Below are positions 6,375 to 60,290 of a stretch of DNA of 64,000 nucleotides, piece after piece. Location: NCBI GenBank assembly GCA_035493735.1, contig DATJHR010000119.1:3589-67588 (forward strand), given 5' to 3'. Within the stretch, counting starts at the first letter, position 1. Every line of letters starts with the position of its first letter. Made by a program: the position numbers and the translations under genes. The notes beneath the pieces are model-generated. The model had not been told where the DNA came from. It worked only from the letters and a program-made list of their open reading frames with translations, and ran no database searches. The stretch comes from Acidocella sp. Its GTDB lineage: Bacteria > Pseudomonadota > Alphaproteobacteria > Acetobacterales > Acetobacteraceae.

Positions 6375-6561
6375 CCTCAGCCTCTCCGGCCATCGCACCA
6401 GTATCGCGCTGGAACCGGAATTCTGGGCGGCGCTGGCGGTTCTGGCGGAAGGGGAAGGGGTGACATTGGCAGCCCTGGTGACCCGGATCGATGCCGGCCG
6501 CGCGCCGGAGCAGAAACTCGCCTCTGCGCTCAGGGTGTTTGCCTTGAACGCAAGGAAGTAA
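6358..6561 (+). CDS. Ribbon-helix-helix domain protein (RHH_4)
   Basis: KRSLSLSGHRTSIALEPEFW...LASALRVF. Confidence 0.85.
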   Translation: MLEKRSLSLSGHRTSIALEPEFWAALAVLAEGEGVTLAALVTRIDAGRAPEQKLASALRVFALNARK

Positions 6562-6704
6562 GGAAGTAGCCGCTTTTTGGAAAAAGCGGCGCAAATACTT
6601 TTTTGACGCTGGGCCGGTGCCGGCGAAACCAGCACGGCCCAGATTAACAAAGTTTTTTTGCTACTTTTTGTTCACAAAAAGTAGCCTTTCTTTTTTCTCG
6701 CTTA
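6559..6704 (+). repeat. Three-hairpin palindromic element, copy 1 (centre type A)
   Basis: GCCGCTTTTTGGAAAAAGCGGC / TGGGCC..CACGGCCCA / GCTACTTTTTGTTCACAAAAAGTAGC, lying between two convergent TAA stops. Confidence 0.95.
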
Positions 6705-9152
6705 TCCGCGCAACACGCCGCCGGTCTTTTTCGCGACCTCGGCAACGATTTTCACGGAAATCGCCTCCAGCTCCGCCTCGGAGAAGCTCTTTTCCGTCGG
6801 CTGCAGCGTCACCGCGATGGCGAGCGAAACCTGGCCTTCGGGCACGCCCTTGCCCTGGTAGCGGTCGAACAGCGCCACGTTGGTGATAACGTTGCGTTCC
6901 GCCCCTTTGGCGGCGCGCAGCAGCGCTTCCACCGGGGCATCTGCGGGCAGCAGGAACGCGAAGTCACGGCGTAGGGGTTGGAAGGCGGGTAGCACGGGGG
7001 CGGCTTTGCGGCGGCGCTTCGGCTCCGCCACCGTGTCCAGGAACACCTCGAAAGCCACGCTGCCGAGCGGCAGGTCGAGTTTCTGGCAGAGGCCGGGATG
7101 CAGCGTGCCGAACGAGGCCAGCACGGTCTTCGGCCCCTGGCGCAGCGTGCCGCTTTGGCCAGGGTGATAGAAGGAGGCGCCTCCCGGAGTTGTTGTCACC
7201 GCATCCAGCGGCACGCCGATGGCGGCCAGCACGGCCAGCGCGTCGGCCTTGGCGTCCATCGCGTCGTAGGGGCGGGAGGGGGCGAGCGCGGAGAGCGGCG
7301 TGTTGCCGACTCGCACGCCGGCGGCGACCAGCGTTTGCGACGTATCGGCTGTGTAGGCCGGGCCGACCTCGAACAGGCTGACATCGCCGAAACCACGCGC
7401 GACGTTGCGGGCGGCGGCCAGCGCCAGGGGCGCCACCGGCGTGTTGCGCATCTGGTCCAGGTCGGCGGCGATCGGGTTGGCCAGGCGCAGCGTCTCCGGC
7501 GTATCGCCGAACAAAGCGGCGGTCTCACGGTCGAGGAAGCTGAATGTCACGCATTCCAACAGCCCGCGCGTCGCCAGAACCCGGCGCGCAAGCGCCGTGC
7601 GCGTCTGCTTCGGTGTCAGCATCGGCGCCGGAATGACGGCGTCGACCGGCAGCGAGACCGGGGCGATGGCATCCATGCCGTTCAGCCGCAGCACCTCTTC
7701 GATCAGGTCCACTTCCGGCTCAATCTGCGCCGCACCCTCGGCGGCTTTGGTGGCGCCGGGGAGGTCGGCCTGGTCCAGCGCCGGCGGCTGGGCGATGTCG
7801 TTGCGCCAGCTCGGCACACGCACCCGCACCTGCTGCGCATCGCGCGCCAGCACGCCAAAGCCGAGCCGCTGCAGCGCGCCCACCGCCTCGTCAGCCCCGA
7901 TCTCGGAGCCGCCAAAGCTTTTGATCCGGAAGAAGCGCAGGCTGGCCTCGCGCGTCCATTCCGGCCGGGCGCCGGCCTCGGACACAGCGCTGGCCTCGCC
8001 GCCGCAGAGCGCCAGGATCATCGAGGTGGCGGCGTCCAGCGCCGCGGGCAGAAGCTGGGAATCGATGCCGCGTTCAAAGCGCTGCCGGGCGTCGGAGAAG
8101 ATGCCGTGGCGCTGGCCGGTCTGGGCGATGCGCACATGGTCGAACAGGGCGCATTCGATGAACACGTTGGTGGTGCCCGCATCGCAGCCCGTGGCCTCGC
8201 CGCCGACAATGCCGGCCAGGGACTGCACGCCGTTGGCATCGGCGATCACGCAGTCTTCCGCGCCGACGCGCACCGGCTTGCCGTGCAGGCCCACGAACTC
8301 TTCGTCCGCGCCCCGGCGCAGGGTCAGCACGCCGCCGGCTACCTTGTCCGCGTCGAACACGTGCAGGGGGCGGCCGAGATCGATGGTGAAGAAATTGGTG
8401 ATGTCGGCCAGGACATTGATCGGCCGCAACCCAATCGAAGTCAGGCGGGCTTTCAGCCAGTCAGGGCTTTCGCCATTTTTCACGTTACGCACGGTGCGGC
8501 CCAGCACCCAAGGGCAGGCTTCCGGAAACGCGTTGCGCCATTGGATGGTGCTGGCGCCGGAGGCGGTGACCGTGCCGGGGACAAAGTCGACCAGCGTGCC
8601 GAGCCCGGCGGCCGCCAGGTCACGCGCCACGCCACGCACCGACAGCGCGTCGCCGCGATTGGGGGTGACGCTGATCTCGATCACCGGATCGTCCAGCCCG
8701 GCCCATTTCGCGTAGGGCGTGCCGACCGGCGCGTCGGCCGGGAGTTCGATGATGCCGTCATGATCCTCGCCGAGTCCGAGCTCGCGCGTGGAGACCAGCA
8801 TGCCCTCGGATTTGACGCCGCGGATTTCGCCCACTTTCAGGGTGATGCCGCTGCCCGGCACGTAGGCGCCGGGCGGGGCGAACACCGCTTTTAGCCCGGT
8901 GCGCGCGTTCGGCGCCCCGCACACCACGGAAAGCTCGCCGCCGCCGGCATTCACGCGGCAGGCGCGCAGCCGGTCGGCATTCGGGTGTTGAACCGCCTCG
9001 ATCACCTCGGCGATGACGAACGGAGCCAGACTCTCGGCCCGGTTCTCCACGCTCTCCACCTCCAGCCCGATGGCGGACAGGGTGGTGACGATCTGCTCGA
9101 GCGTGGCCTCGGTTTGCAGCCAGGTTTTCAGCCAGGAAAGAGAGAATTTCAT
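6702..9152 (-). CDS. pheT: Phenylalanine-tRNA ligase beta subunit
   Basis: MKFSLSWL start, HPNADRL, TPNRGD, RFERG, C-terminal FDX-ACB domain. Confidence 0.97.
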   Translation of the reverse strand: MKFSLSWLKTWLQTEATLEQIVTTLSAIGLEVESVENRAESLAPFVIAEVIEAVQHPNADRLRACRVNAGGGELSVVCGAPNARTGLKAVFAPPGAYVPGSGITLKVGEIRGVKSEGMLVSTRELGLGEDHDGIIELPADAPVGTPYAKWAGLDDPVIEISVTPNRGDALSVRGVARDLAAAGLGTLVDFVPGTVTASGASTIQWRNAFPEACPWVLGRTVRNVKNGESPDWLKARLTSIGLRPINVLADITNFFTIDLGRPLHVFDADKVAGGVLTLRRGADEEFVGLHGKPVRVGAEDCVIADANGVQSLAGIVGGEATGCDAGTTNVFIECALFDHVRIAQTGQRHGIFSDARQRFERGIDSQLLPAALDAATSMILALCGGEASAVSEAGARPEWTREASLRFFRIKSFGGSEIGADEAVGALQRLGFGVLARDAQQVRVRVPSWRNDIAQPPALDQADLPGATKAAEGAAQIEPEVDLIEEVLRLNGMDAIAPVSLPVDAVIPAPMLTPKQTRTALARRVLATRGLLECVTFSFLDRETAALFGDTPETLRLANPIAADLDQMRNTPVAPLALAAARNVARGFGDVSLFEVGPAYTADTSQTLVAAGVRVGNTPLSALAPSRPYDAMDAKADALAVLAAIGVPLDAVTTTPGGASFYHPGQSGTLRQGPKTVLASFGTLHPGLCQKLDLPLGSVAFEVFLDTVAEPKRRRKAAPVLPAFQPLRRDFAFLLPADAPVEALLRAAKGAERNVITNVALFDRYQGKGVPEGQVSLAIAVTLQPTEKSFSEAELEAISVKIVAEVAKKTGGVLRG

Positions 9153-9157
9153 CGCGG

Positions 9158-10225: not shown

Positions 10226-10630
10226 GGCATCACCTAATCTCGGTCTCCGAAGCACCGCTGGACGTGCGCCGCGAAGATGGAATTCGATTAAAAATTAGAT
10301 CGTTAAGGAACGATCCTTCAACCCGCATGCCGACCGTTTGCGTTGGGCGGCGGAATGCGTCGGGGAGGGCAGACATTTTCAGTGAGCAAATGTCAAGCGC
10401 CGCAGCGCAGGCCGGGGCCGCGCGACGGCTGGCGAAGTGTTACTAAATCTCAACAGCGGGATATAAACCGTTAAATCCCCCTAAACATCTCGACATTTCG
10501 CCCCGTGTCGTGCTTGACCCTTCTGTGCCGGGCAGAGTATGGCCGGCGAGGAAGCGTAATCATAGTGGTTTCGCAACTAAGTTAACTGACTAAGTTGACC
10601 TCACCATCACGGACAGGGATCGGTTTTACT

Positions 10631-11128: not shown

Positions 11129-11171
11129 CATTTCCCGCACGCCGGCTTGATCGGCGTGTCGTCGTCCAGGC

Positions 11172-11212: not shown

Positions 11213-11266
11213 GCCCGTCAAAGGGATATAACCGGTTTTATGTCGTCCAAGCACCCGGAACCTTGC

Positions 11267-15408: not shown

Positions 15409-15580
15409 AGGCGCAAGGAAGGCAAGGGGCTCCGCCCCTTGACCCCGCCGGGGCCGGGAGGCCCCGGACCCCAGAACTTAAAACGGCGCCTGTTGGCGCC
15501 GTTTTGCTTGAGCGCCAATGGGCCAAAGGACAAAAAGTTTTTGCGCCGCTTTTTTCAAAAAGCGGCCACTTCCTCCTTTA
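15406..15580 (-). repeat. Chimeric palindromic element, copy 2 (standard GCCGC arm plus a different GC-rich arm)
   Basis: Right part AAAGTTTTTGCGCCGCTTTTTTCAAAAAGCGGCCAC; left part has hairpins CAAGGGGCTCCGCCCCTTG, CCGGGGCC..GGCCCCGG, AAAACGGCGCC..GGCGCCGTTTT. Confidence 0.85.
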
Positions 15581-15582
15581 CG

Positions 15583-16362
15583 TCAGGCCGTGGGAAACGC
15601 CTGATTACGGACCTCTTCGGCGTAGCCGGAAATCGCCTTCTGGATCAGCTTCGCGCCCTCCAGATAGGCCTTGGCGAAGGCCGGAACATGGTCCTGGTTC
15701 AGGCCCAGCACGTCATGTAGCACCAGCACCTGGCCGTCCGTGCCGGGTCCGGCGCCGATGCCGATGGTCGGCACGGCGAGGCGCTGCGTGATGTCGCTGG
15801 CGAGCGGCGAGGGGATGGCCTCCATCAGCACGATGCGCGCGCCGGCCTCGGCGAAAGCGACTGCGTCCTGCAGTAGCCGCGCCGCCGCCTCCGGCGTCTT
15901 GCCCTGGCGCTTGAAGCCGCCGAACTGCCGTACATGCTGCGGCGTCAGCCCGATATGGGCGCAGACCGGCACCGCCCGCGCCGAGAGATAGGCCACGGTC
16001 TCGACCATGGCCTCGCCGCCTTCCAGCTTCACGATGTCGGCGCCGGCCTTCATCAGCCGCGCGGCGCTGGCCAGCGCCTGGGCCGGGCTTTGCTCGTAGC
16101 TGCCGAACGGCAGGTCGGCCATCAACAGCGCCTTTTGCACGCCCTTGGCGACGATCTTGGTGTGGTATTCCATCTGTTCCAGGCTGACGCGCAGCGTGTC
16201 GGCGTCGCCGGCCACCACCATGCCAAGCGAATCGCCGACCAGAATCGCATCGATCCCCGCCGCGTCTGCCATCCGCGCGAACGGATAGTCATAGGCAGTG
16301 ATCATGGTCATCTTGCGACCATCGCGTTTGGCTTTGTCCCAAACGCCAAGGTTCTTACTCAT
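15583..16362 (-). CDS. panB: 3-methyl-2-oxobutanoate hydroxymethyltransferase
   Basis: TAYDYPFA, LVGDSLG, KLEGG, HIGLTPQ, GIGAG..DGQVLV. Confidence 0.96.
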   Translation of the reverse strand: MSKNLGVWDKAKRDGRKMTMITAYDYPFARMADAAGIDAILVGDSLGMVVAGDADTLRVSLEQMEYHTKIVAKGVQKALLMADLPFGSYEQSPAQALASAARLMKAGADIVKLEGGEAMVETVAYLSARAVPVCAHIGLTPQHVRQFGGFKRQGKTPEAAARLLQDAVAFAEAGARIVLMEAIPSPLASDITQRLAVPTIGIGAGPGTDGQVLVLHDVLGLNQDHVPAFAKAYLEGAKLIQKAISGYAEEVRNQAFPTA

Positions 16363-18977: not shown

Positions 18978-19856
18978 ATGTTTCACGGATCTCTGACCGC
19001 TTTGGTGACGCCGATGCATGCCGACGGGCGCATTGATGAAGACGCTTTGGCGCGTCTGATCGACTGGCAAATCGCCGAGGGCACGCAGGGACTCGTTCCG
19101 GTCGGCACGACCGGCGAATCGCCGACCCTGTCGCACGAGGAACATGAGCGCGTGGTCGAGCTGACCATCGCCAAGGCGAAGGGCAGGGTGCCGGTGATTG
19201 CCGGTGCCGGTTCCAACTCCACGGCCGAGGCGATCAGCCTGGCGGCGCACGCGCAGAAGGCCGGTGCCGACGCCGTGCTGGTTGTCACGCCCTATTACAA
19301 CAAGCCGACCCAGGAAGGCCTGTACCGTCATTTCAAGGCGATCATCGATGCTACCGACATTCCGGTGATCATTTACAACATTCCTGGCCGTTCGGTGGTC
19401 GATATGTCGGTTGAGACCATGGCGCGGCTGGCGCAGGAGAAGAACATCGTCGGCGTGAAGGACGCGACTGCGAACCTGACCCGGCCGCTGCACACCACCC
19501 GCGCCTGCGGGGCCACCTTCAACCAGCTTTCCGGTGAGGATCATACGGCCCTTAGTTTCCTCGCCGCCGGCGGGCATGGCTGCATCTCCGTCACCGCCAA
19601 TATCGCGCCGCGGCTCTGCGCCGAGATGCATGCGGCCTGGGCCAAAGGTGAAATCGCCCAAGCGATGGCGATCCAGCAGCGTCTGGTGCCGGTGCACGAT
19701 GCGATGTTCGTCGAGACCAATCCCGGCCCGGTGAAATACGCGGCCTCGCTGCTCGGCTTCGGCACCGCCACCAGCCGTCTGCCGGTGGCCCCGGTCAGCG
19801 CCGCCACCGCCGAGAAGGTGCGCGCGGCGATGAGGGAAGCAGGATTGCTGAATTGA
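18978..19856 (+). CDS. dapA: 4-hydroxy-tetrahydrodipicolinate synthase
   Basis: GTTGES, PYYNKP, YNIPGRS, GVKDA. Confidence 0.97.
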   Translation: MFHGSLTALVTPMHADGRIDEDALARLIDWQIAEGTQGLVPVGTTGESPTLSHEEHERVVELTIAKAKGRVPVIAGAGSNSTAEAISLAAHAQKAGADAVLVVTPYYNKPTQEGLYRHFKAIIDATDIPVIIYNIPGRSVVDMSVETMARLAQEKNIVGVKDATANLTRPLHTTRACGATFNQLSGEDHTALSFLAAGGHGCISVTANIAPRLCAEMHAAWAKGEIAQAMAIQQRLVPVHDAMFVETNPGPVKYAASLLGFGTATSRLPVAPVSAATAEKVRAAMREAGLLN

Positions 19857-20338
19857 CCGGTAGTGCCAAGTCCAAGTCGGGTTACATCTCGCACGGCATC
19901 GCCTCGCAGAACCGCAAGGCGCGGTTCGACTATAAGATTCTCTCCACGGTCGAGGCCGGCATCGTACTGAGGGGCGTAGAGGTGAAATCGCTGCGCCTCG
20001 GCCGCGCCACGCTCACCGAGGCCTGGGCCGGCGAGCGCGACGGCGAGCTTTATCTCTTCAACGCCTATATTCCGGAATACCAGAACGGTGTGCTGTCGCG
20101 CTTCGATGTGCGCGGCGCCCGCAAGCTGCTGGTCAAGAAGAAGGAACGGGGCCAGTTGCTCGGCGCGGTCGCCCGCGAGGGCGCGACGCTGGTGCCGCTC
20201 GACATCCATTTCAATGAGCGCGGTCTGGCGAAAGTTACGCTCGGCATCGCCGAAGGTAAGCAGAAGCACGACAAGCGGCAGGCGGTCGCGGCGCGGGATT
20301 GGCAGCGGGATAAGGCTAGGCTGCTGCGTAACAGGTAA
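19853..20338 (+). CDS. smpB: SsrA-binding protein
   Basis: NRKARFDY, EAGIVL.G.EVKSLR, GKQKHDKR. Confidence 0.96.
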   Translation: MTGSAKSKSGYISHGIASQNRKARFDYKILSTVEAGIVLRGVEVKSLRLGRATLTEAWAGERDGELYLFNAYIPEYQNGVLSRFDVRGARKLLVKKKERGQLLGAVAREGATLVPLDIHFNERGLAKVTLGIAEGKQKHDKRQAVAARDWQRDKARLLRNR

Positions 20339-20477
20339 AAAAGAAAGTGGCCGCTTTTTGAAAAAAGCGGCGCAAAAACTTTTTCGACGCTGGGCCTGAG
20401 GCGCTGAAACCAGCACGGCCCAAGTTTAAAAAAGTTTTTTGCTTCTTTTTTTCAAAAAAGAAGTGCTTTCTTTCTTA
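20336..20477 (+). repeat. Palindromic element, copy 3 (centre type A)
   Basis: Same three-hairpin layout between the smpB TAA and the UDG TAA. Confidence 0.95.
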
Positions 20478-21149
20478 AGCGGCTGTGCCGATAAAATCCC
20501 TGATCTCACCAACAACTTCTTCGAACATGTCCTGGGTGAGTCGGCGCGTGCTCGTGTTGTAACGCGAGACATGATAGCTGTTGAACAGCCGCACGCCGCC
20601 TGTTTCATGCATGGCGCCATGGGCGAATTTATGTGCCGCGGCACGTGCGCCCAGCGCGCGCAGGCTCATCAGATGCGCGACGGTGCCCAAGGTGAGGATG
20701 GCGCGCAGGCGCGGCATGGCCGCGATTTCCGCTTTGAGGAACGCGTTGCAGCTTTTATTTTCCGCCGGCGTCGGCAGATTCTGCGGCGGCACGCAGCGCA
20801 CCGCATTGGTGACGCGGCAGTTGTGCAAGCGCAGCCCGTCATCTGGCCGCTCCTGATAATCGCCGGTGGCGAAGCCGAATTTGATCAGCGTGTGATAGAG
20901 CAGCAGGCCGGCATAATCGCCGGTGAAGGGACGGCCGGTGCGGTTGGCACCGCGCACGCCGGGCGCCAGGCCGACGATCAGAAGTTCCGCGTCCAGCGCG
21001 CCGAAACTCGGTACCGGCGCATTATGCCAGGCCGGTTCCTTGGCCCGATTTTCCGTGCGGTAGAGGACCAGACGCGGGCATAAGCCGCAATCCCGGCCCG
21101 GATTTGTCAGCGCCGCAGGCGCGGCGACATGGCTTGTGATTTCTGGCAT
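20475..21149 (-). CDS. Uracil-DNA glycosylase (family 4/5)
   Basis: C..CPRL, GLAPG..GANRTGRPFTGD, RCVPPQN.P, YHVS.YN. Confidence 0.9.
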   Translation of the reverse strand: MPEITSHVAAPAALTNPGRDCGLCPRLVLYRTENRAKEPAWHNAPVPSFGALDAELLIVGLAPGVRGANRTGRPFTGDYAGLLLYHTLIKFGFATGDYQERPDDGLRLHNCRVTNAVRCVPPQNLPTPAENKSCNAFLKAEIAAMPRLRAILTLGTVAHLMSLRALGARAAAHKFAHGAMHETGGVRLFNSYHVSRYNTSTRRLTQDMFEEVVGEIRDFIGTAA

Positions 21150-21171
21150 TTCAGAGCTGCTGCGACCGCGA

Positions 21172-21744
21172 TCAGCCGTCGGTTTCACTGCGGCTCATGC
21201 GGCCGCGTGGCTCGCTGGTGCGCCGGCTGAATTCCGGGGCGATGTCGGCCAGATCAAGAAACTGGTCGGCCTGGCGCCGCAATTCATCGGCGATCATCGG
21301 CGGGCTTGTCCTGATCGTGGAGACGACCGACACGCGCACACCTTTGCGTTGCACCGCCTCGACCAGACGGCGAAAATCGGAATCGCCGGAGAACAGGATC
21401 ACATGGTCGAGGCGCGGCGCCAGCTCCAGCATGTCGATCGCCAGCTCGATATCCATGTTTCCCTTGATCCGTCTCCGTCCTTGCGCATCGGTGAACTCCT
21501 TGGCCGGCTTGGTCACCAGGCTGTAGCCATTATAGGCCAGCCAGTCCGTCAACGGTTTCAGCGGGGAATATTCCTCGGTTTCCAGCAGCGCCGAATAATA
21601 ATAGGCGCGGATCAAATTCAGGTTCACGCCGAAGTAATCGAGGAGCTTGCGATAATCGATGTCGAAGCCGAGGCTTCTCGTCGCCGCATAGAGATTTGCC
21701 CCGTCGATGAACAACGCGGTCCGTTCTTGCGCGGCGAATCTCAT
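21172..21744 (-). CDS. NYN domain (LabA/DUF88) protein
   Basis: FIDGANL, KGNMDIEL, SGDSDF motifs. Confidence 0.92.
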   Translation of the reverse strand: MRFAAQERTALFIDGANLYAATRSLGFDIDYRKLLDYFGVNLNLIRAYYYSALLETEEYSPLKPLTDWLAYNGYSLVTKPAKEFTDAQGRRRIKGNMDIELAIDMLELAPRLDHVILFSGDSDFRRLVEAVQRKGVRVSVVSTIRTSPPMIADELRRQADQFLDLADIAPEFSRRTSEPRGRMSRSETDG

Positions 21745-25605: not shown

Positions 25606-26220
25606 ATGACCATGTATTTTTACGAACCCACCGCCGGGCATGGGCTGGCGCATGATCCGTTCAACGCCATCGTCGGGCCGCGGCCGATCGGCTGGGTCTC
25701 GACCCGGGGCGCCGATGGAAGGGTGAATCTCGCCCCGTACAGTTTTTTCAACGCCTTCAATTACACGCCGCCGATCGTCGGCTTTGCCAGCACCGGCCCG
25801 AAAAATTCGGTGCGCAACGTGCAAGAGACGCGCGAATTCGTGTGGAACCTGGCGACCCGCAAGCTGGCCACGCAAATGAACGCGACTTCGGCTTCCGTGC
25901 CGTACGGGGTGGATGAATTCGAACTGGCCGGGTTGGACAAAGCGCCGTCACGCCTGGTGGCGCCGCCGCGCGTGGCCGCCAGCCCGGTGCATTTCGAGTG
26001 CAAACTGGCCGATATCGTCCAGCTGAAGAGTTCGACCGGCGCGCTGGTCCCGACCTGGCTGGTGCTGGGCGAGGTGGTCGGCGTGCATATCGACCCGGCT
26101 TTGCTCAAGGACGGCCTGTTCGATACGTTCGGCGCGGAGATCATCCTGCGCGCGGGCGGCCCGTCGGCCTATGCGGCGATCGCGCCGGATGCCCGGTTCG
26201 ACATGGTGAGGCCAAAGTAA
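25606..26220 (+). CDS. Flavin reductase family protein
   Basis: PRPIGWVST, NLAPYSFFN, SPVHFEC. Confidence 0.9.
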   Translation: MTMYFYEPTAGHGLAHDPFNAIVGPRPIGWVSTRGADGRVNLAPYSFFNAFNYTPPIVGFASTGPKNSVRNVQETREFVWNLATRKLATQMNATSASVPYGVDEFELAGLDKAPSRLVAPPRVAASPVHFECKLADIVQLKSSTGALVPTWLVLGEVVGVHIDPALLKDGLFDTFGAEIILRAGGPSAYAAIAPDARFDMVRPK

Positions 26221-26350
26221 GGAAGGGCCGCTTTTTGAAAAAAGCGGCGCAAAAACTTTTTTAAACTGGGCCGGTGGCGGTGCAACCAGCACGGCCCAGA
26301 TGAACAAAGTTTTTTTGCTACTTTTTGTTCACAAAAAGTAGCCTTTCTTA
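26218..26350 (+). repeat. Palindromic element, copy 4 (centre type A, minimal 133 bp)
   Basis: TAAGGAAGGGCCGC...GTAGCCTTTCTTA; both ends are TAA stops of convergent genes. Confidence 0.95.
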
Positions 26351-26593
26351 CTTTTCCGCATCGCGGAAATAGGGCTCGACCGTGCCTTTGAGCCGCATGG
26401 TCAGCGGCTTGCCGTGGCGGTCGACGCTTTTGCCGACGGCCACCCGCACCCAGCCTTCGGACACGGAATATTCCTCGACATTGTTTTTCTCGACGCCGTT
26501 GAAGCGGATGCCGATGCCGCGTTCGAGCAGGGCCTCGTTATAGTGCGGGCTGTCGGGATCGATCGAGAGGCGATCGGGAGGTGTGTCGCTCAT
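26348..26593 (-). CDS. DUF3297 family protein
   Basis: PDRLSIDP.SP, GIRFNG.EK.NVEEY..SEGW. Confidence 0.85.
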   Translation of the reverse strand: MSDTPPDRLSIDPDSPHYNEALLERGIGIRFNGVEKNNVEEYSVSEGWVRVAVGKSVDRHGKPLTMRLKGTVEPYFRDAEK

Positions 26594-29396: not shown

Positions 29397-30286
29397 CCAA
29401 ATGCGGCTTCATCGCCTTGATCGGCGCGCCCAATGCGGGAAAATCCACGTTGCTCAACCGGCTGACCGGGGCGAAGCTCTCCATCGTCACGCCGAAAGCG
29501 CAAACCACGCGGGCGCGGGTGCTGGGCATTCTCATGCGCGGCGAGGCGCAGATCCTGTTCGTCGACACCCCGGGCATTTTCGCGCCGAAACGCCGGCTGG
29601 ACCGGGCCATGGTCGCGGCCGCCTGGGACGGGGCGGGGGACGCGGATTATCTGCTCCTGCTGGTCGACGCCAAAACCGGGCTGACCGAGGCCGTGCGCGG
29701 CATCATCGCCCAAGCCGCGGCCACCGGCCGCAAGATGGCGCTGGTGTTGAACAAGGTGGATCTGGTGGAACGGCACCGGCTGCTGCCGCTGACCCAGGAC
29801 ATCGCAGGGCTCGCGAGCTTCGAACAGGTGTTCATGATCTCCGCCGCCACCGGCGACGGCATCGACGTGCTGCTCGATTTCTGCACCGCCAAGCTGCCCG
29901 AGGGGCCGTATCTGTACCCTGAGGACGAGCTCACCGACCTCCCGGACCGGCTGCTGGCGGCGGAAATCGTCCGAGAGCAGATTTTTCTGCAGACCCGCGA
30001 CGAGGTGCCCTATGGCACCACGGTCGAGACCGAGAGTTTCAAGACGCAGAAAGACGGCGCGGTGCGGATCGACGCCGTCATCTACGTCGCCCGGGCCGGG
30101 CACAAGGCGATTCTGATCGGTGCCAAAGGCGCGCGGATCAAGGATATCGGCGCCCGCGCGCGGCGGGAACTGAGCGCGCTGCTGGAATGCAACGTGCATC
30201 TGTTCCTGCGCGTGAACGAACGCCCCGGCTGGGATGAGGAAGCCGAACGGATCCGTGCGACCGGGCTGAACGATCCGAAAAGTTAG
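29393..30286 (+). CDS. era: GTPase Era
   Basis: GAPNAGKST, DTPG, NKVD, KH domain. Confidence 0.97.
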   Translation: MTKCGFIALIGAPNAGKSTLLNRLTGAKLSIVTPKAQTTRARVLGILMRGEAQILFVDTPGIFAPKRRLDRAMVAAAWDGAGDADYLLLLVDAKTGLTEAVRGIIAQAAATGRKMALVLNKVDLVERHRLLPLTQDIAGLASFEQVFMISAATGDGIDVLLDFCTAKLPEGPYLYPEDELTDLPDRLLAAEIVREQIFLQTRDEVPYGTTVETESFKTQKDGAVRIDAVIYVARAGHKAILIGAKGARIKDIGARARRELSALLECNVHLFLRVNERPGWDEEAERIRATGLNDPKS

Positions 30287-30441
30287 AAAAGCAAAGGAAG
30301 CGCTACTTTTTGTGCACAAAAAGTAGCAAAAAAACTTTGTTAGTTTGGGCCGTGCTGGTTTCGCGGCCACCGGCCCAAAGTCAAAGAAAGTTTTTGCGCC
30401 GCTTTTTTCAAAAAGCGGCCCTTCCTTCCCTCGTTTCGTTA
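30284..30441 (-). repeat. Palindromic element, copy 5 (centre type A, reverse orientation)
   Basis: Starts at the era TAG; GCTACTTTTTGTGCACAAAAAGTAGC ... GCCGCTTTTTTCAAAAAGCGGC. Confidence 0.95.
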
Positions 30442-30481
30442 GCCTAAAGGCCGCTCCAAAGCTTGGGCGGAGGCGCGGCGC

Positions 30482-32167: not shown

Positions 32168-32173
32168 TTATAG

Positions 32174-33841: not shown

Positions 33842-34098
33842 CGATGATCCTTCCAATTTGTTGCTGATCCGATAGATCAAAAACCCGCGCAACCCAAGAC
33901 GCTTGTTGAAAGGGAAGTGAATCGGCGCGGTTGGCAGTTTCATTTGCGCGCCGTTTGCGGAGGTATCAGCCTGGCGTTGGTCGGAGCCCGGTGGCGGGGG
34001 ATGGTCACCGCCGCCTGTCATGCGCTCCGTCCTTATTAACCGTGGTCACGGCGGCTGAATAAAGCTATACTCGCCCGAGTACAGAGCGAGGGGTGTGC

Positions 34099-38760: not shown

Positions 38761-38788
38761 AAAAAGGGCGGCTTCGGCCGCCCTTTTT
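38761..38788 (+). terminator. Bidirectional intrinsic terminator after pnp
   Basis: AAAAAGGGCGGC-TTCG-GCCGCCCTTTTT. Confidence 0.9.
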
Positions 38789-38801
38789 CATCAGAGGCCC
38801 C

Positions 38802-38961
38802 AAGGCAAGCGAAAGGCTTCTTTTTGTGAACAAAAAGAAGCAAAAAAACTTTATTTACTCTGGGCCGTGGGCGTTGGCGGCGACACAGACTCAGGCCCAG
38901 CTGAGCCAAAAGTTTTTGCGCCGCTTTTTTCAAAAAGCGGCCACTTTCTTGACTTTCCTTA
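38802..38961 (-). repeat. Palindromic element, copy 6 (centre type B)
   Basis: Centre CTGGGCCGTGGGCGTTGGCGGCGACACAGACTCAGGCCCAG; ends at the TAA of the Sel1 ORF. Confidence 0.95.
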
Positions 38962-40170
38962 GGCCGATGCGCCGCGGAACCAGACAGCGAAATTGAACGC
39001 GCCGATCGGGTCACAGGCTTCGGCGGCACGTTCGTACCATTCGGGCAGAGGTATGGAGCCGGTCGGCTGCGCGCCGGTGCGGCGGTTCAGCAGCAGGGTG
39101 GCGAGATCGGCCTGGGCGGCCGGATCCCCGGCCGCGTTGGCCCGCTGGAACCAGGTCGCGGCCGCGTCGGCATCGCGGCCGACGCCGGCGCCGGTCAGGT
39201 ACAGCACACCCAGGGCCCGGGCGGACTCACGATCCCCAGCGTCGGCGGCGCGGCGGAACCAGAGTGCCGCCGCACCGTAATTCGGCGGCAGGTCGCTGCC
39301 ATTGGCGTAAAGCTGGGCGAGGGTCGCCGCGGCTTCAACATCCCCGGCCAGGCCGGCGCGGCGCAGCCAGGCTTCGCCCTGCGCCCGGTTCGCCTTCAGC
39401 CCCAGCCCGCGGAACAGCATGGCACCATATTTCGTCTGGGCGGCTATGCTGCCGGCCTGCGCCGCCTGACCATAATAGGTGGCGGCGAGCGTGGCGTCGG
39501 CGGGCACGCCGATCGCCTTTTCGTAGATCAGCCCAAGATAATAATACGCGGTGGGAACCTTCTCGTCCGCCGCTCGGCGGATATGCGCGATGGCGGCGGA
39601 TATGTCGGCATCGGTTTTCGCACCGTGGAGAAGAACCGCGCCGTACCCCAGATGCCCGCGCGCGGCACCGGCCTCGGCCGCCTTGCCGTACCAGAATCTC
39701 GCCCGGGCGGCGTCGCGCAATTCTTCCGGGCCGGCGGCATAGATGAACCCCGCCATGACTTGAGATTCGGCATCGCCTTCCGCGGCGGCCAGCAGCGCCC
39801 AGCGCAAGGCGGTGGCGAAATCGGGTTCGGCACTGTCCTGGCGGAACAAAGCCGCCTCGGCGCCGCTTTCGGGATGCCCGGCCATGGCCAGCCCGGCGAG
39901 ATAGCGGCGCGCATCCGTGTCGCCCTTGTCCGCAGCGCGGCCGAACCATCGCGCCGCCTCGGAACGGTTGCGCGGCACCGCCTCGCCCCGCAGATAGCAG
40001 CGGCCGAGTTCACGCTCCGCCACGGTGAGACCGGCCGTGGCGGCGACGGCGAAAAGCTTGACCGCGCGAAGGTGATGGCCCGCTGCCTGCAAAGCCTGCG
40101 CCCGCGCCAGCGCATTGTCCGGCTTGCGGGCGGCCAGCCGGTCGGCGATCGTCAGCCGCGCTTTCGGCAT
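38959..40170 (-). CDS. Sel1-repeat protein, probably C-terminally truncated
   Basis: Repeated A..LG..Y..G.GV..D...A..WF..AA units; last unit stops part-way; start uncertain (40170 or 40242). Confidence 0.8.
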   Translation of the reverse strand: MPKARLTIADRLAARKPDNALARAQALQAAGHHLRAVKLFAVAATAGLTVAERELGRCYLRGEAVPRNRSEAARWFGRAADKGDTDARRYLAGLAMAGHPESGAEAALFRQDSAEPDFATALRWALLAAAEGDAESQVMAGFIYAAGPEELRDAARARFWYGKAAEAGAARGHLGYGAVLLHGAKTDADISAAIAHIRRAADEKVPTAYYYLGLIYEKAIGVPADATLAATYYGQAAQAGSIAAQTKYGAMLFRGLGLKANRAQGEAWLRRAGLAGDVEAAATLAQLYANGSDLPPNYGAAALWFRRAADAGDRESARALGVLYLTGAGVGRDADAAATWFQRANAAGDPAAQADLATLLLNRRTGAQPTGSIPLPEWYERAAEACDPIGAFNFAVWFRGASA

Positions 40171-40560: not shown

Positions 40561-41061
40561 ATGGAAATTCTAAACGCGACTGAAGCGGATCTCGAAGACG
40601 CACAGGCGATTTACGCGTACCATGTTCTGCATGGCACCGGCACGTTCGAAGAGGTGCCGCCCTCGCTCGAGGAATTCACGCAGCGCTACCGGGCGATCAT
40701 CGAGGGCGGTTATGCCTGGCTGCTGGCGCGCGACGCCTCAGGTTGCCTTGGCTTTGGCTATTACGGCCCGTTCCGCGCCCGCAGCGCCTATCGCTTCACC
40801 GTCGAGGACAGCGTCTATGTGCGCGAGGGGGTGCGGGGCCAGGGCGTCGGCAAGGCCATCGTCTCCGCGCTGGTCGCCCACGCCACACAGGCGGGGTTTC
40901 GGCAGGTGCTGGCGCTGATCGGCGATTCCGAGAATGTCGCCTCGGTGGGCGTGCATGCCAGCCTCGGCTTCCAGTCGGTCGGCACGATGCGCCGTGTTGG
41001 CTACAAGTTCGACCGCTGGCTCGATGTGGTGACGATGCAGAAGACGCTGGCGCGCGGATAA
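40561..41061 (+). CDS. GNAT N-acetyltransferase (Pat/YncA-like)
   Basis: TFEEVPP, RSAYRFTVEDSVYV, RGQGVGK, VGYKFDRWLD. Confidence 0.92.
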   Translation: MEILNATEADLEDAQAIYAYHVLHGTGTFEEVPPSLEEFTQRYRAIIEGGYAWLLARDASGCLGFGYYGPFRARSAYRFTVEDSVYVREGVRGQGVGKAIVSALVAHATQAGFRQVLALIGDSENVASVGVHASLGFQSVGTMRRVGYKFDRWLDVVTMQKTLARG

Positions 41062-41201
41062 ATAAGGAAGAAAGTGGCCGCTTTTTGAAAAAAGCGGCGC
41101 AAAAACTTCTTCGAACTGGGCCGGGGGCGTCGAAACCAGCACGGCCCAGTTTAAAAAAAGTTTTTTGCTTCTTTTTTCCAAAAAGAAGCCTTCCCTTCCT
41201 A
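41059..41201 (+). repeat. Palindromic element, copy 7 (centre type A)
   Basis: Lies between the GNAT TAA and the glutamine-synthetase-like TAG. Confidence 0.95.
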
Positions 41202-42551
41202 CATCCGTTCAAACGACCGGAAACGCTCCCAGTCCGTGACGGCGGCGTTGAACACGTCCAACTCCACCTTCGCCATGTTGGCGTAATGCGCCACCACATC
41301 CGCGCCGAACGCCGCCCGGGTGAATTCGTTTTCGGCAAACAGAAGCGCCGCCTCGTGCAGGGTTTTGGGCACGCGCGGCAGGTCTGCCTCATAGGCGTTG
41401 CCGGTGAACAGGGGCGCTGGCGGCAGGTCGCGCTCGATGCCGTCCAGCCCGGCGGCGATCATCGCGGCGAGCGCCAGATAGGGATTCACATCGCCGCCGG
41501 GCAACCGGTTCTCCACCCGCAGCGAGGTGCCGTGGCCCACCACCCGGTAGGCGCAGGTGCGGTTGTCCATGCCGCAGGCGAGGGTGGTGGGCGCGAAACT
41601 GCCGGCGGCGAAGCGTTTGTAGGAGTTGATGTTCGGCGCGTAGAACAAAGTGAGCGCCGGCGTATGCGCCAGCAGCCCGGCGAGGAATTGCAAAAACAGT
41701 TTCGATGGGCTGTGCCCGTCCGCCGCCACAAAGGCCGGCTGTCCGGCGCTGTCGCGGAGCGAGAGATGGACATGGCAGGAATTGCCCTCGCGCTCGTTGA
41801 ACTTCGCCATGAAGGTGAGGGCATGGCCGGCTTCCGCGGCAATCTCCTTCGCCGCTTCCTTATAGATCACATGTTGGTCGGCAGTGATCATCGCCTCGCG
41901 ATAGGCGAAATTGATCTCGTGCTGTCCAAGGTTGCATTCGCCCTTGGAGGTTTCCACCTGGATGCCCGCCTGCTCCATCGCATTGCGGATTTTCCGAATC
42001 ACCGGCTCCACCCGTGCGGTGCCGAGAATGGAGTAATCGTTGTTGTACTGGTTTGCCGGTGTCAGGCCCCGATAGGCTTTTTCCCAAGCGTCCTCATAGG
42101 AATTGCGGAACAGGAGGAATTCCAGCTCGGTCGCGGCGAAGGCGGTCAGCCCGCGCGCGGCCAGGCGCTCGAGTTGCTGGCGCAGCATGGTGCGCGGCGC
42201 CACCGGCGCGGGGCGGTGGCCGGCAAGTTCGATATCGCACAGCACGATCGCCGCTCCCGGCTGCCAGGGGGCGAGGCGCAGCGTGCTCAGGTCCGGCGTG
42301 AACAGGAAATCGCCATAGCCCTGGTCCCAGGAGACCAGCTCGTAGCCTGGCACCGGCCGGCACTCGACATCGGTGGCCAGCAGATAGGAACAGCCTTCCG
42401 TGGCCTCGCTGGAGAGGAAGAATTTCGGCATCAGACGCTTGCCTTGCAGCCGCCCTTGCATGTCCGGCGCGGCGAGGATGACCGTGTCGATCTCGCCGCG
42501 CTCGGCCATGGCGCGCAGGGTGGGCAGGCTGAGGGGGTTTGAGCCGGGCAT
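41199..42551 (-). CDS. Glutamine synthetase family protein (gamma-glutamyl-amine ligase, PuuA-like)
   Basis: DMQGRLQGKR, ELEF, GQHEINF, GNSCHVHLSL, NSYKR, DNRT, ENRLPG.D.NPY. Confidence 0.9.
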   Translation of the reverse strand: MPGSNPLSLPTLRAMAERGEIDTVILAAPDMQGRLQGKRLMPKFFLSSEATEGCSYLLATDVECRPVPGYELVSWDQGYGDFLFTPDLSTLRLAPWQPGAAIVLCDIELAGHRPAPVAPRTMLRQQLERLAARGLTAFAATELEFLLFRNSYEDAWEKAYRGLTPANQYNNDYSILGTARVEPVIRKIRNAMEQAGIQVETSKGECNLGQHEINFAYREAMITADQHVIYKEAAKEIAAEAGHALTFMAKFNEREGNSCHVHLSLRDSAGQPAFVAADGHSPSKLFLQFLAGLLAHTPALTLFYAPNINSYKRFAAGSFAPTTLACGMDNRTCAYRVVGHGTSLRVENRLPGGDVNPYLALAAMIAAGLDGIERDLPPAPLFTGNAYEADLPRVPKTLHEAALLFAENEFTRAAFGADVVAHYANMAKVELDVFNAAVTDWERFRSFERM

Positions 42552-49676: not shown

Positions 49677-50099
49677 TTGTTGGATTTGGAGACGGCTAAG
49701 AAGATTTTGGACACGGCTCTGGCCCATGCGGTCGCGCATAAATTCAAGCCGATGGCGATTGTCGTGCTCGATGCGCGTGGCGCCATGAAGGCTTTTGTCG
49801 CGCAGGACGGCACCAGCCTGAAGCGTGCGGAAATTGCGATCGGCAAGGCGCATGGCGCGCTGGCCATGGGCATGGGCACGCGGGCGCTGATGCAGCGGGC
49901 CGAGACGCAGCCTTATTTCATCGCCGCGGCGACCGCGGCGGTTGGCGGCGCGCTGATCCCGGTGCCGGGCGGCGTGCTGATCAAAAAGGGCGGCGCGGTG
50001 GTCGGTGCGATCGGCCTGTCCGGCGACACGTCCGACAATGATGAGGCCGCGGCCTTTGCGGCCATTTCGGCGGCCGGGCTCGAGGCCGACGGCGGCTAA
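49677..50099 (+). CDS. GlcG/HbpS family heme-binding protein
   Basis: A.GKA, PGGVLI...VVGAIGLSG..SD.DE. Confidence 0.88.
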   Translation: MLDLETAKKILDTALAHAVAHKFKPMAIVVLDARGAMKAFVAQDGTSLKRAEIAIGKAHGALAMGMGTRALMQRAETQPYFIAAATAAVGGALIPVPGGVLIKKGGAVVGAIGLSGDTSDNDEAAAFAAISAAGLEADGG

Positions 50100-50260
50100 G
50101 CAGTAAGACAAGAAAGGGCTTCTTTTTTGAAAAAAAGAAGCAAAAAACTTCTTTCAAAAAACTTCTTTAAACTTGGGCCGTGCTGGTTTCGCGGCCACCG
50201 GCCCAGTTTCGAAAAAGTTTTTGCGCCGCTTTTTTCAAAAAGCGGCTTCTTTCTTACTTA
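50097..50260 (-). repeat. Palindromic element, copy 8 (centre type A, with internal 14-bp tandem duplication)
   Basis: Lies between two TAA stops; CAAAAAACTTCTTT occurs twice at 50141-50168. Confidence 0.95.
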
Positions 50261-51804: not shown

Positions 51805-53085
51805 ATGCGGGTGTTGATTGTCGGGTCCGGCGGACGGGAACATGCTCTGGCCTGGGCGATTTCAGCGAGCCCGTTGCTGACGGAATTATTTGTCGCCCCG
51901 GGCAATCCGGGCACCGCTTCCGTCGCCACGAACGTGCCGCTGCGCACCAACGATATTGATGGCTTGGTGAAGTTCGCGGTGGCGCAAAAGATCGATCTGG
52001 TGGTGCCGGGGCCGGAGGCGCCGCTGGTGGCGGGGCTCGCCGATGCGTTGGCGGCGGAAAAAATCGCTTGCTGCGGGCCGAGCGCCGCCGCCGCCCAGCT
52101 TGAAGGCAGCAAGCGCTTCACCAAGGAAATCGCCGATGCCGCGCGCATCCCCACCGCGGCCTGGAAGGCCTTCACGGAGGCGGATGCCGCGCACGATTAT
52201 GTCGAGGCGATGGGCGCGCCGATCGTGATCAAGGCCGACGGTCTGGCGGCGGGCAAGGGGGTGGTCGTCGCCACCACGCTGGACGAGGCGCATGAGGCGG
52301 TCACCGCCATTATGGAAGACCGGGTGCATGGCGCCGCCGGCACGGAAATCGTCATCGAGCAATGCCTGGTGGGTGAAGAGATTTCCGTCTTTGCGCTGTG
52401 TGACGGGGAGGATGCGCTCTATCTCGGCTGCGCGGCCGACCATAAGCGCGTCGGCGACGGCGATACCGGGCCGAACACCGGCGGCATGGGCGCGATTTCG
52501 CCGCCGCCCTGGGCCAGCCAGCCGGTCATCGACACGACCATGGCGCGCATCATCCGTCCGGCGCTCGCCGAGATGGCCCGGCGCGGCACGCCGTTCCGGG
52601 GCTTTCTGTTCGCCGGCCTCATGGTCGAAGCGGACGGGCCGAAGCTCATCGAGTTCAATGTGCGCTTCGGTGACCCGGAATGCGAGACGCTGCTCCCGCT
52701 GCTGCGCTCCGACATTCTGCCGGCGCTGGTGGCCGCCACCGAAGGCGAGCTGAAGCATGTGGACCTGCGCTGGCGCGACGCGGCCTCCGCCACGGTGGTG
52801 ATGTGCTCCAAGGGCTATCCTGGCGCTTACGCCACCGGCGGCGAAATATTCGGGCTCGAAGAGGCGGGCGCGCTGCCGGAAGTGACCATCTTCCATGCCG
52901 GGACGATGGCGGACCAGGGCGGCATCCTGGCCAATGGCGGGCGCGTTCTGGCGGTGAACGCCACCGGCGCGGATCTGCAGCAGGCGGTGGCGCGGGCCTA
53001 TGAAGCGATCGACACGATCGAATGGGAGGACGGATTCTGCCGCCGCGATATCGGCCGCCGGGCGATTTTTGCGGCGAAGGGGTAA
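51805..53085 (+). CDS. purD: Phosphoribosylamine-glycine ligase
   Basis: GSGGREHAL, KADGLAAGKGV, GPNTGGMGA, EFNVRFGDPE. Confidence 0.97.
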   Translation: MRVLIVGSGGREHALAWAISASPLLTELFVAPGNPGTASVATNVPLRTNDIDGLVKFAVAQKIDLVVPGPEAPLVAGLADALAAEKIACCGPSAAAAQLEGSKRFTKEIADAARIPTAAWKAFTEADAAHDYVEAMGAPIVIKADGLAAGKGVVVATTLDEAHEAVTAIMEDRVHGAAGTEIVIEQCLVGEEISVFALCDGEDALYLGCAADHKRVGDGDTGPNTGGMGAISPPPWASQPVIDTTMARIIRPALAEMARRGTPFRGFLFAGLMVEADGPKLIEFNVRFGDPECETLLPLLRSDILPALVAATEGELKHVDLRWRDAASATVVMCSKGYPGAYATGGEIFGLEEAGALPEVTIFHAGTMADQGGILANGGRVLAVNATGADLQQAVARAYEAIDTIEWEDGFCRRDIGRRAIFAAKG

Positions 53086-53244
53086 GGAAGAAAGTGGCCG
53101 CTTTTTGAAAAAAGCGGCGCAAAAACTTTTGGCTCAGCTGGGCCTGAGTCTGTGTCGCCGACAACGCCCACGGCCCAGAGTAAATAAAGTTTTTTTGCTA
53201 CTTTTTGTTCACAAAAAGTAGCCTTCCTCCCTTCATCTTCCTTA
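53083..53244 (+). repeat. Palindromic element, copy 9 (centre type B)
   Basis: Near-identical reverse complement of copy 6; starts at the purD TAA. Confidence 0.95.
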
Positions 53245-53246
53245 CT

Positions 53247-55778: not shown

Positions 55779-55842
55779 GCGGAGCCCTCACGAATCGCAT
55801 GATCGGCGGCGGGCCGAACATGCCGCGGAGCCGAGTCCGGCC

Positions 55843-55967
55843 AAGGCAAGGGAAAGGCTTCTTTTTGTGAACAAAAAGAAGCAAAAAAACTTTATTGACT
55901 CTGGGCCGTGGGCGTTGTCGGCGACACAGCATCAGGCCCAGCTGAGCCAAGAGTTTTTGCGCCGCTT
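55843..55967 (-). repeat. Palindromic element, copy 10a (type B, GCCGC arm truncated)
   Basis: Complete GCTTC arm and centre; breaks off at GCGCCGCTT. Confidence 0.9.
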
Positions 55968-56100
55968 AGGTGCCGCGCGGCGGAATAATCGTGAGAATCA
56001 ACCGGGACGTCTGGCCAAAGACCTTAAAATTGTCTTACTCTTGTTTGTTTGTAATAGTGACGGTCATCAATTGAACCTAACCATCAAGCGTCGACCGGAC

Positions 56101-57537: not shown

Positions 57538-57541
57538 TTGA

Positions 57542-57629
57542 CCGTGGGCGTTGTCGGCGACACAGAATCAGGCCCAGCATAATAAAAGTTTTTGCGCCGC
57601 TTTTTTCAAAAAGCGGCCGCTTTCCTCTA
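57542..57629 (-). repeat. Palindromic element, copy 10b (type B, lacking the GCTTC arm)
   Basis: CCGTGGGCGTTGTCGGCGACACAG...GCCGCTTTTTTCAAAAAGCGGC; ends at the TAG of the next gene. Confidence 0.9.
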
Positions 57630-59227: not shown

Positions 59228-60147
59228 ATTTCAAATCCCGGCAGTCTTGGCAGATGTGTAGGGCATAAAGCCATGGCTTTGAACAGGCTCCCCATGGCCT
59301 CCGGCGCGGTGAGGCGCTGCGCCGCCAGTGCGAACTGCCGCGCTTTGTCGGGAAATTTACGGGCGAGAACATCGCTGCGCTGGAACAGGCCAAGCCCGGT
59401 GAGAAAGGCATTCTGCTTCACCGGCCCTTGCACATTTTTAACGTGCGCGGCGATGGCGGCGAAATCGACATGGGCGGTCAGGTCGGCCTGCCCCGGAAAC
59501 GACAGTGGATCGGCATAGGCGCCGTCGCGGATCGCCTGTACCGAGCTGCCGGGGGCGCTCTGCAGGGGGCCGTAATCGAGGAACAGCGCCACCGCGTCAC
59601 GCGCCGCCAGTTTAGCGCAGAATTCCAGCGCGGCCTCATTGCGTTCGCGGACGGTGCCTGGGGGATCGTCCGGCAGGTCGATGTCGGTCGGCAGTTCGCG
59701 GTACGCGCCGTCCTCGACATAAAGCTCGCACCAGCCGGCTTCGCGGCGAACGAATTGCCGCACCGGCAGCGCATCCAGAAACTCATTGGCGAGCAGGATC
59801 AGCGGCCCGTCGGGGATGGTGTCCAGCGAGTCATGCCAGACGGCGTTGGGTACCCGCGTGGCTTGTTGCGCCCGCAGGCGGGGCGAGGTTTCGATCAGAT
59901 GCACCTGCGCGCGCGGCCACAGGCGCAGCGCGTCCGCCATTAGCGTGCCGCGTCCGGGCCCGGCCTCGGCCAGGATGATCGTCTCCGGCGCGCCCATCAT
60001 CTGCCACACGGTCTTCGCCCAGGCGCCGAGGATTTCGCCGAAAACCTGAGTCAGTTCCGGGGCGGTGGTGAAATTCTTGAACGGGTCCTGCGTCGCATAA
60101 TACGCGGCGTTGGCCCGGGCCATGAAGTGATCGAAGCGTTCCATCAT
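59224..60147 (-). CDS. SAM-dependent methyltransferase, NDUFAF7/MidA family
   Basis: FTTAPELTQVFGE, EAGPGRGTL, ANEFLDALP, DLTAHVDF, MGSLFK. Confidence 0.9.
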   Translation of the reverse strand: MMERFDHFMARANAAYYATQDPFKNFTTAPELTQVFGEILGAWAKTVWQMMGAPETIILAEAGPGRGTLMADALRLWPRAQVHLIETSPRLRAQQATRVPNAVWHDSLDTIPDGPLILLANEFLDALPVRQFVRREAGWCELYVEDGAYRELPTDIDLPDDPPGTVRERNEAALEFCAKLAARDAVALFLDYGPLQSAPGSSVQAIRDGAYADPLSFPGQADLTAHVDFAAIAAHVKNVQGPVKQNAFLTGLGLFQRSDVLARKFPDKARQFALAAQRLTAPEAMGSLFKAMALCPTHLPRLPGFEI

Positions 60148-60290
60148 GGAAGAAAGCAAGTGGCCGCTTTTTGGAAAAAGCGGCGCAAAAACTTTTGCTG
60201 AGCTGGGCCGGTGGCATCGACACAAGCACGGCCCAAGTAACCAAAGTTTTTTTGCTTCTTTTTGTTCACAAAAAGAAGCCCTTCCTTGGC
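60148..60290 (+). repeat. Palindromic element, copy 11 (type A variant), inside the lgt operon
   Basis: Same arms; centre CTGGGCCGGTGGCATCGACACAAGCACGGCCCAA. Confidence 0.95.

Follow-up and report, generated by a model that had tools for sequence, protein, structure and literature searches.

REP/BIME-like three-hairpin palindromes dispersed in Acidocella and other Acetobacteraceae

In Escherichia coli, repetitive extragenic palindromes (REPs) work at the 3' ends of RNA, where they block exonucleases or terminate transcription weakly and in part. Correia elements of Neisseria end in well-conserved terminal repeats of 26 bp, are associated with a TA duplication and contain an IHF site; RUP of Streptococcus pneumoniae has a partner of the IS630 type (IS, insertion sequence); and RIME, Sm-repeats and ERIC/IRU are present in tens of copies rather than hundreds. 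Small palindromic repeats for which no mobiliser is known (Correia, ERIC and RIME among them) have long been a loose end of bacterial genome biology. Here, we describe a repeat of 145-160 bp with three hairpins, of which 12 copies lie in a 64-kb window (the whole stretch of DNA that was analysed, 64,000 nucleotides) from a metagenome-assembled genome (MAG) of Acidocella sp. In our preferred reading, to which we assign a probability of roughly 0.6, these repeats are non-coding mosaic palindromes of part of the Acetobacteraceae that resemble REPs and bacterial interspersed mosaic elements (BIMEs), depend on their hairpins, are non-autonomous and probably act on RNA 3' ends.

A sequence-only reading of the window had proposed a dense family of three-hairpin elements, and all of the loci that it reported exist. 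A profile hidden Markov model (HMM) was built from nine window copies and used in nhmmer searches of the window and the genome; it identified 12 loci in the window, nine full and three partial. The centre pattern TGGGCC..GGCCCA was matched 10 times in the window, with an expectation of 0.5. The 12 copies are:

6550-6711, plus strand: full element, arm 1 to arm 2, at a convergent junction (nhmmer 170.9 bits, HMM 9-170); the stop of a minus-strand open reading frame (ORF) at 6702 falls inside its pyrimidine-rich end
15506-15583, minus strand: partial copy (arm 1, linker and half of the centre) after ftsH (HMM 11-88; FtsH domains)
20329-20490, plus strand: full element between smpB and a UDG-family gene, the exemplar of the anatomy (nhmmer 155.8 bits, Pfam matches of the flanking genes, predicted fold)
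26213-26368, plus strand: full element at a convergent junction (nhmmer 160.2 bits), with gene stops at 26220 and 26348
30277-30439, minus strand: full element after an Era-like GTPase gene, in tandem context (nhmmer 158.3 bits, Pfam)
38790-38963, minus strand: full element with a long centre type, at a convergent junction (nhmmer)
41053-41210, plus strand: full element at a convergent junction (nhmmer 153.8 bits), with an orthologous copy in the related genome G016
50096-50260, minus strand: full element with a duplicated linker, between an HbpS-like gene and xseA (nhmmer, Pfam)
53073-53245, plus strand: full element with a long centre type, between purD and an ABC transporter gene (nhmmer, Pfam)
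55840-55967, minus strand: truncated copy (arm 2 and centre, broken within arm 1) upstream of a MASE1-GGDEF gene (nhmmer, sequence)
57543-57625, minus strand: truncated copy (half of the centre, linker and arm 1) after the GGDEF gene, with a full copy at the G016 site (nhmmer)
60141-60303, plus strand: full element in tandem (minus/minus) context (nhmmer 166.4 bits, ORFs)

The exemplar is made up of the following parts, all read on the plus strand:

20336-20349, plus strand: purine-rich end, whose first three bases are the TAA stop of smpB (ORF 19853-20338)
20350-20371, plus strand: arm 1 hairpin with a GCCGC foot and a T5/A5 inner stem
20372-20390, plus strand: linker 1 (GCAAAAACTTTTT...), which pairs with linker 2 in the predicted fold
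20391-20422, plus strand: GC-rich central hairpin TGGGCC..GGCCCA, variable inside (pattern match)
20423-20440, plus strand: linker 2 (..AAAAAAGTTTTTT), which together with the start of arm 2 forms a family-wide 19-20-mer
20441-20464, plus strand: arm 2 hairpin with a GCTTC foot, of the short-loop subfamily (compensatory pairs across copies)
20465-20477, plus strand: pyrimidine-rich end, whose last three bases are the TTA stop of the convergent ORF 20475-21188 on the minus strand

The same layout was found in 408 full copies across the MAG: a purine-rich end (RRnRAAGRAAGnG in the left-flank profile), an arm with a GCCGC foot, an A5CT5 linker, a GC-rich centre, an A3GT7 linker, an arm with a GCT(A/T)C foot and a pyrimidine-rich end (profile CCYTYCCYTY). 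The first arm consists of the GCCGC foot, T5, a short loop, A5-6 and GCGGC, and its motif has 467 exact copies genome-wide. On the purine side, the bases leading into arm 1 are A-G-N-G; T is present at -2 in 47% and A at -1 in 19%. On its outer side, arm 2 has CCYT. The consensus sequences of linkers 1 and 2 (GCAAAAACTTTT and AAAGTTTTTTT) can pair with each other: at each position, 286-382 of about 390 copies have a Watson-Crick pair. The arms had been described as diverged inverted copies of one unit, with linkers that pair. The two centre types of the same description need correction, as the central hairpin is variable and falls into more than two types. When the whole element was folded, a four-way junction with three hairpins was predicted for both strands (z of -3.3 and -5.3).

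Conservation differed strongly between the modules. Mean pairwise identity was highest in the arms (0.90), followed by the linkers (0.70), the centre (0.69) and the ends (0.53). Stem positions of arm 1 were identical in 376-385 of about 387 copies (about 98-99%), and arm 2 contained two fully compensatory pairs, T-A/A-T in 252/141 copies and G-C/T-A in 337/61 copies. We also built a cross-genus alignment of 23 sequences from Acidocella species and seven other genera, in which the arms were 89% and 96% paired and 11 pairs were altered on both sides. Its covariation score was 0.286 versus 0.125 in shuffles (none of 500 reached 0.286) and 0.06-0.13 in slid controls, while the inner T/A stem pairs never varied. 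The basic unit is about 45-50 nt long: a linker of A3-4, G and T6-7, a hairpin of 22-26 nt and a pyrimidine-rich tail. Within the hairpin, the inner stem of C-T5-7 and A5-7-G is invariant, and the foot of 4-5 bp varies yet stays complementary. The Acidocella element consists of two such units, inverted and bracketing a variable GC-rich hairpin. Such an arm, fixed in its inner stem and free to covary in its foot, is probably better suited to being recognised as a folded strand than as a duplex site. Downstream of purD in Acidocella facilis and a relative, we observed a permuted element that has its linkers outside the arms and a GGGGAC..GTCCCC foot, so that both orientations of the arm-plus-linker unit towards the centre exist. 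Within the MAG, subfamily markers are linked across modules (Cramer's V of 0.3-0.6), the pattern that copying of entire elements, together with a degree of recombination, would leave.

The MAG (3.0 Mb in 207 contigs, 82% complete, 63% G+C), whose nearest named relatives at the purD locus are MAGs and strains of Acidocella, contained 637 non-overlapping nhmmer loci, 408 full and 229 partial or solo, with equal numbers on the two strands. The guess of possibly hundreds of copies genome-wide was therefore sound. The loci cover 79.9 kb or 2.66% of the genome, one per 4.7 kb, and fill about 16% of the crude non-coding space. Several contig pairs (C87/C147, C116/C194, C27/C186, C58/C122 and others) are 85-96% identical over 0.8-2.5 kb, which suggests that the bin mixes two related strains or species; such pairs help in close comparisons and are a caveat for the copy counts. 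By crude gene calls, the copies are almost all intergenic. They occupy 41% of convergent junctions, 14.5% of tandem junctions and 8% of divergent ones, and their orientation relative to transcription is unbiased (114 to 88). Facing stop codons lie 9-30 nt from the hairpin foot in no fixed register, with one or two exceptions below 9 nt, and TAA and TAG stops are enriched beside copies (63% versus 47% genome-wide). In the contigs of four soil DNA metagenomes, depth over element bins was tens- to hundreds-fold that of the flanks and chimeric joints were present; none of the contig joints in these four runs skipped an element. In practice, the element breaks metagenome assemblies.

The family is not limited to one genus. 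Among the Acidocella genomes sampled, G016 and G004 have hundreds of copies, several other species have tens and some have none. We then surveyed one genome for each of 80 other Acetobacteraceae genera. By BLAST, 23 of the 80 matched, mostly through a linker-plus-arm 45-mer at 92-100% identity, and the matched loci follow the arm-linker-centre-linker-arm plan or are solo units. The exact linker-plus-arm 19-20-mer had 404 hits in the Acidocella MAG and from 1 to 387 per genome in 21 of the 80 genera; it was missing from the other 59 and from all of 150 other families of the class, and a reversed control had no match anywhere. The arm-plus-linker module is kept almost letter for letter across many Acetobacteraceae genera and is not genus-specific. 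In a plasmid collection, we found one degenerate copy, on Acidiphilium multivorum pACMV3 (L154, 1197-1343), which lies under an annotated hypothetical protein of 48 aa (RefSeq WP_154653566.1) that is probably a spurious gene call over the element. At least 119 IMG/VR contigs contain the 19-20-mer pattern. One of these contigs, L233, encodes a myovirus-like late cluster with a major head protein, tail sheath, baseplate and fibre proteins; three full elements separate late genes of the same direction in this cluster.

The family reaches new sites, and copies at old sites are overwritten by other family members. We compared the MAG with G016, an Acidocella species that is syntenic with the window at about 87% nucleotide identity (80% at third codon positions). 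For ten of the 12 window loci, G016 also has an element at the corresponding site. Over 400 kb of G016, 3-4 of about 45 mapped full copies were at sites empty in the MAG, two full copies of the MAG (contigs C32 and C6) were at sites empty in G016, and at five further sites a full copy in the MAG corresponded to a half or partial copy in G016. Several Acidocella species have no element at the purD junction, the place of the 53073 copy, and the stops there are only 4-25 nt apart; in other species the junction is occupied by different variants or in the opposite orientation. Empty orthologous sites, a check on mobility named by the sequence-only reading, are thus present among Acidocella species. 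Together with the species-specific copies, the tandem clusters and the copies in a phage late operon, they show that new loci arise.

Overwriting became apparent from 30 orthologous pairs of full copies in the MAG and G016. Orientation was shared in 29 of the 30, and shared sites with shared orientation indicate a shared insertion ancestry. Identity between orthologs equalled identity between non-orthologs in every module (0.945 versus 0.944 in arm 1), and subfamily markers, including the compensatory arm 2 pair and a loop indel, matched between orthologs no better than chance. Such shuffled subfamily content at shared sites shows that copies have been overwritten in place. Of the elements on two MAG contigs that are 93% identical, one is conserved and one is flipped or replaced. 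Ectopic gene conversion is probably the simplest mechanism for the overwriting, and would help to explain an arm identity of 0.945 where neutral sites are at 0.80.

Several features of the window and its G016 counterpart stand beside these copies. Convergent genes flank nine of the 12 window copies and co-directional genes the other three, and the flanking genes are ordinary housekeeping ones (ftsH, smpB, a UDG-family gene, an Era-like GTPase gene, xseA, purD and an ABC transporter gene). As had been noted, the window has no mobilising gene: the gene between the 55840 and 57543 copies, considered as a transposase, encodes a MASE1-GGDEF protein. At the junction at 38784-38981, contig C12 of G016 is about 6.7 kb longer and contains three tandem element copies, a BIME-like cluster. 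Conversely, a 3.6-kb segment of the window (30440-34030) that begins right after the 30277 copy is missing from G016. It encodes a 561-aa protein without a Pfam family (with a lower GC3 of 0.70), a TPR/glycosyltransferase-9-like protein and a TPR protein, and with these products it was rejected as a mobility cassette. After ftsH, the partial copy at 15506 is joined to a second G+C-rich repeat (15425-15480; core CCGGGGCCGGGAGGCCCCGG with an ACCCC tail) and to a canonical bidirectional terminator-like hairpin (15484-15515; A4-CGGCGCC..GGCGCCG-T4) that directly adjoins it. The second repeat is also fused to element half-copies on MAG contig C121 near 7382 and in the G016 region syntenic to window position 35700; by exact 20-mer count it has only three copies in the genome.

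We propose that copying of the element would depend on the folded hairpin, either as single-stranded DNA or as RNA, and that the hairpin may be recognised by a trans-acting protein other than a REP-associated tyrosine transposase (RAYT). Ectopic gene conversion between copies would then homogenise the family. Copies would survive where they are harmless, just past stop codons, and the surviving ones would most probably influence RNA 3' ends, by holding up exonucleases or by weak, partial termination. By analogy with REPs, a role as a 3' exonuclease barrier or partial terminator is our best guess. A loose terminator scan accepts the distal arm together with its CTTTCTT tail, the arm stem is A/U-rich and the tail is interrupted by C; terminator-like hits overall are not enriched (23 versus 19.2 in shuffles).

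A number of points weigh against this proposal. No mobilising enzyme was found, and the search for IS elements is incomplete because the MAG is fragmented and its IS elements are largely missing. Within a copy, the purine-rich and pyrimidine-rich ends show no covariation, which means that selection at the level of the copy does not maintain the closing stem of the predicted fold. Gene conversion was deduced from marker shuffling in 30 pairs from one species pair, and the gene context comes from a crude GC3-based gene caller. No target duplication was visible at the compared sites (87-93% identity), where the boundaries are too diverged to show or exclude one. Finally, canonical GC-rich terminators adjoin some copies (window 15484-15515, L002 of G016 and contig C165), and the phage copies on L233 sit between late genes that are presumably co-transcribed. 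These last two observations make strong termination by the element unlikely.

The earlier label of a REPIN/MITE-like family (MITE, miniature inverted-repeat transposable element) was right in describing a high-copy, non-coding palindromic family with insertion polymorphism; its REPIN half failed, as no RAYT was found in the element-rich genomes searched. REPINs proper are inverted REP doublets mobilised in trans by a single-copy RAYT, a Y1/HUH transposase. The 408 inverted doublets, the solo units and the hundreds of extragenic copies agree with this architecture, and the lack of a visible target duplication is what IS200-type chemistry predicts. RAYT-positive genomes are also enriched among element-positive ones (8/14 versus 15/66, Fisher p = 0.02, not corrected for kinship). 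We detected RAYTs with NF047646, as the Pfam model PF01797 (Y1_Tnp) is too insensitive: it had no match in the MAG or five relatives and scores true RAYTs at only 25-34 bits. NF047646 found no RAYT in the MAG, in six element-rich Acidocella genomes (G004, G010, G016, G019, the closed G021 and G022) or in three high-copy genera (G098, G112, G120), and the Acidocella genomes that do carry a RAYT are element-poor. The RAYTs examined in relatives are bracketed by GTAG REPs of their own, the A/T-tract arms bracket none of 16 RAYT loci, and the palindromes of the element lack a conserved GTAG or CGTC head. REPINs proper are thus largely refuted and very improbable here. Beside RAYT genes of other Acidocella species (L132-L137) and of G083 (L127), the flanking REPs read GTAGGATGGGT..ACCCATC and GTAGCCCGCATC..GATGCGGGC; these RAYTs with classic GTAG REPs show that the Acetobacteraceae have a separate, orthodox REP/RAYT system. 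An ordinary IS-derived MITE, Correia- or IS630-like and inserted at TA, often the TA of a stop codon, would have the purine-rich and pyrimidine-rich ends as its terminal inverted repeats. The size, the absence of coding capacity, ends that are inverted in composition, the insertion polymorphism and the excess of TAA and TAG stops beside copies all fit. Against these stand the spread of stop-to-foot distances without a register, ends that are only 53% identical between copies and unmatched left to right within a copy, and the absence of a visible duplication at any compared site, although the boundaries there are diverged. Moreover, the IS630 (contig C53), ISL3 (C30) and IS4/IS5 fragments (C62, C129) of the MAG have ends unrelated to the element. 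The search for a transposase flanked by the same arms, incomplete for IS elements in this fragmented MAG, came back empty, with RAYTs bracketed by GTAG REPs and unmatched ends on the single IS630 copy, and we consider the MITE explanation improbable. The IS630-family element itself lies at a contig start (C53, 1-1060), has a frameshifted or two-part transposase and has CTAGAGCGNGATGAG ends.

The element could instead be a cis-acting module of the host, such as a terminator or attenuator that works in both directions, a stabiliser of mRNA 3' ends or a site bound by a conserved nucleoid or RNA-binding protein, kept by selection and spread or homogenised only by recombination. Its near letter-for-letter conservation across genera, an arm identity far above the neutral level at shared sites, its location at gene ends and the terminator-like tail of the distal arm would all follow from such a role. 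Yet relatives have only the 4-25 nt and no hairpin of any kind between the same convergent genes at purD, 59 of the 80 sampled genera have no element, new loci arise, including in phage, orientation is unbiased with respect to transcription, and canonical terminators already adjoin some copies. We therefore regard a purely host-kept module as unlikely. Hundreds of copies of a short motif conserved across the family, equally common in both orientations and overwritten at orthologous sites, also recall the DNA uptake sequences (DUS/USS type) of Neisseriaceae and Pasteurellaceae, which biased uptake and recombination would spread. A receptor site for double-stranded DNA has no need of a conserved unit of 45-50 nt with a covarying foot, and uptake sequences are common inside genes whereas these copies are almost all intergenic, which makes this explanation scarcely credible.

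Within the preferred reading of hairpin-dependent, REP/BIME-like palindromes, the invariant T5-A5 hairpin with its covarying foot might be the recognition site of a new mobilising or converting enzyme, other than a RAYT, in one clade of the Acetobacteraceae. We put this forward tentatively, as a possibility that is more doubtful than the reading as a whole. If true, it would be a new partnership between a small repeat and an enzyme, one that also colonises the phages of the clade. With the element in 22 of 81 sampled genera and absent from 59, phyletic profiling could reveal the partner gene. The family is unusually tractable, with hundreds of copies, a near-identical module across genera and a clean pattern of presence and absence; its carriers Acidocella and Acidiphilium are culturable, and copies are also found in a phage. 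It further offers a case in which dispersed copies stay uniform by overwriting one another at fixed sites.

No named and characterised family could be assigned to the element from the sequence, and this still holds: in an Rfam search of the window only a tRNA reached its gathering score, with the best sub-threshold matches at 25 bits against cut-offs of 54-68, and in the searched literature the arm sequences were absent and no such repeats were described in Acidocella or Acidiphilium. An exact search with one protein encoded in the window returned no recorded match. Correia elements (CREE/NEMIS) are alike in their size of about 100-160 bp, inverted ends, lack of coding capacity, hundreds of copies that make up at least 2% of a small genome, position close to genes (where Correia elements are co-transcribed) and lack of a known transposase. 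They differ in that the Acetobacteraceae element has poorly conserved ends and no visible TA duplication, its conserved parts being internal hairpins. RIME and Sm-repeats of Rhizobiaceae and ERIC/IRU of Enterobacteria are likewise mosaic palindromes between genes of Proteobacteria, 100-180 bp long, for which no mobiliser is known; no similarity to them was found by Rfam search. SPRITE, BOX and RUP of S. pneumoniae share the modular build of small repeats that mimic terminators or sit at gene ends, in another phylum and with other sequences. The closest known kind is REP/BIME/REPIN of Enterobacteria and Pseudomonas, by architecture, placement and concerted evolution. Both comprise short palindromes that can be solitary, paired as inverted doublets or part of mosaic clusters that include other motifs. 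Both have hundreds of extragenic copies, most of them downstream of genes and at convergent junctions. In both, species have sites in common but the sequence at a site matches the family of the resident genome, a target duplication has not been seen (here at diverged boundaries), and roles in mRNA 3' stabilisation and termination have been proposed. The Acetobacteraceae element differs in having neither a GTAG/CGTC head nor a detected cognate RAYT, in a hairpin that is A/T-rich inside with a short G+C foot where the REP hairpin is G+C-rich, and in a unit that includes a fixed A/T linker, nearly unchanged across many genera.

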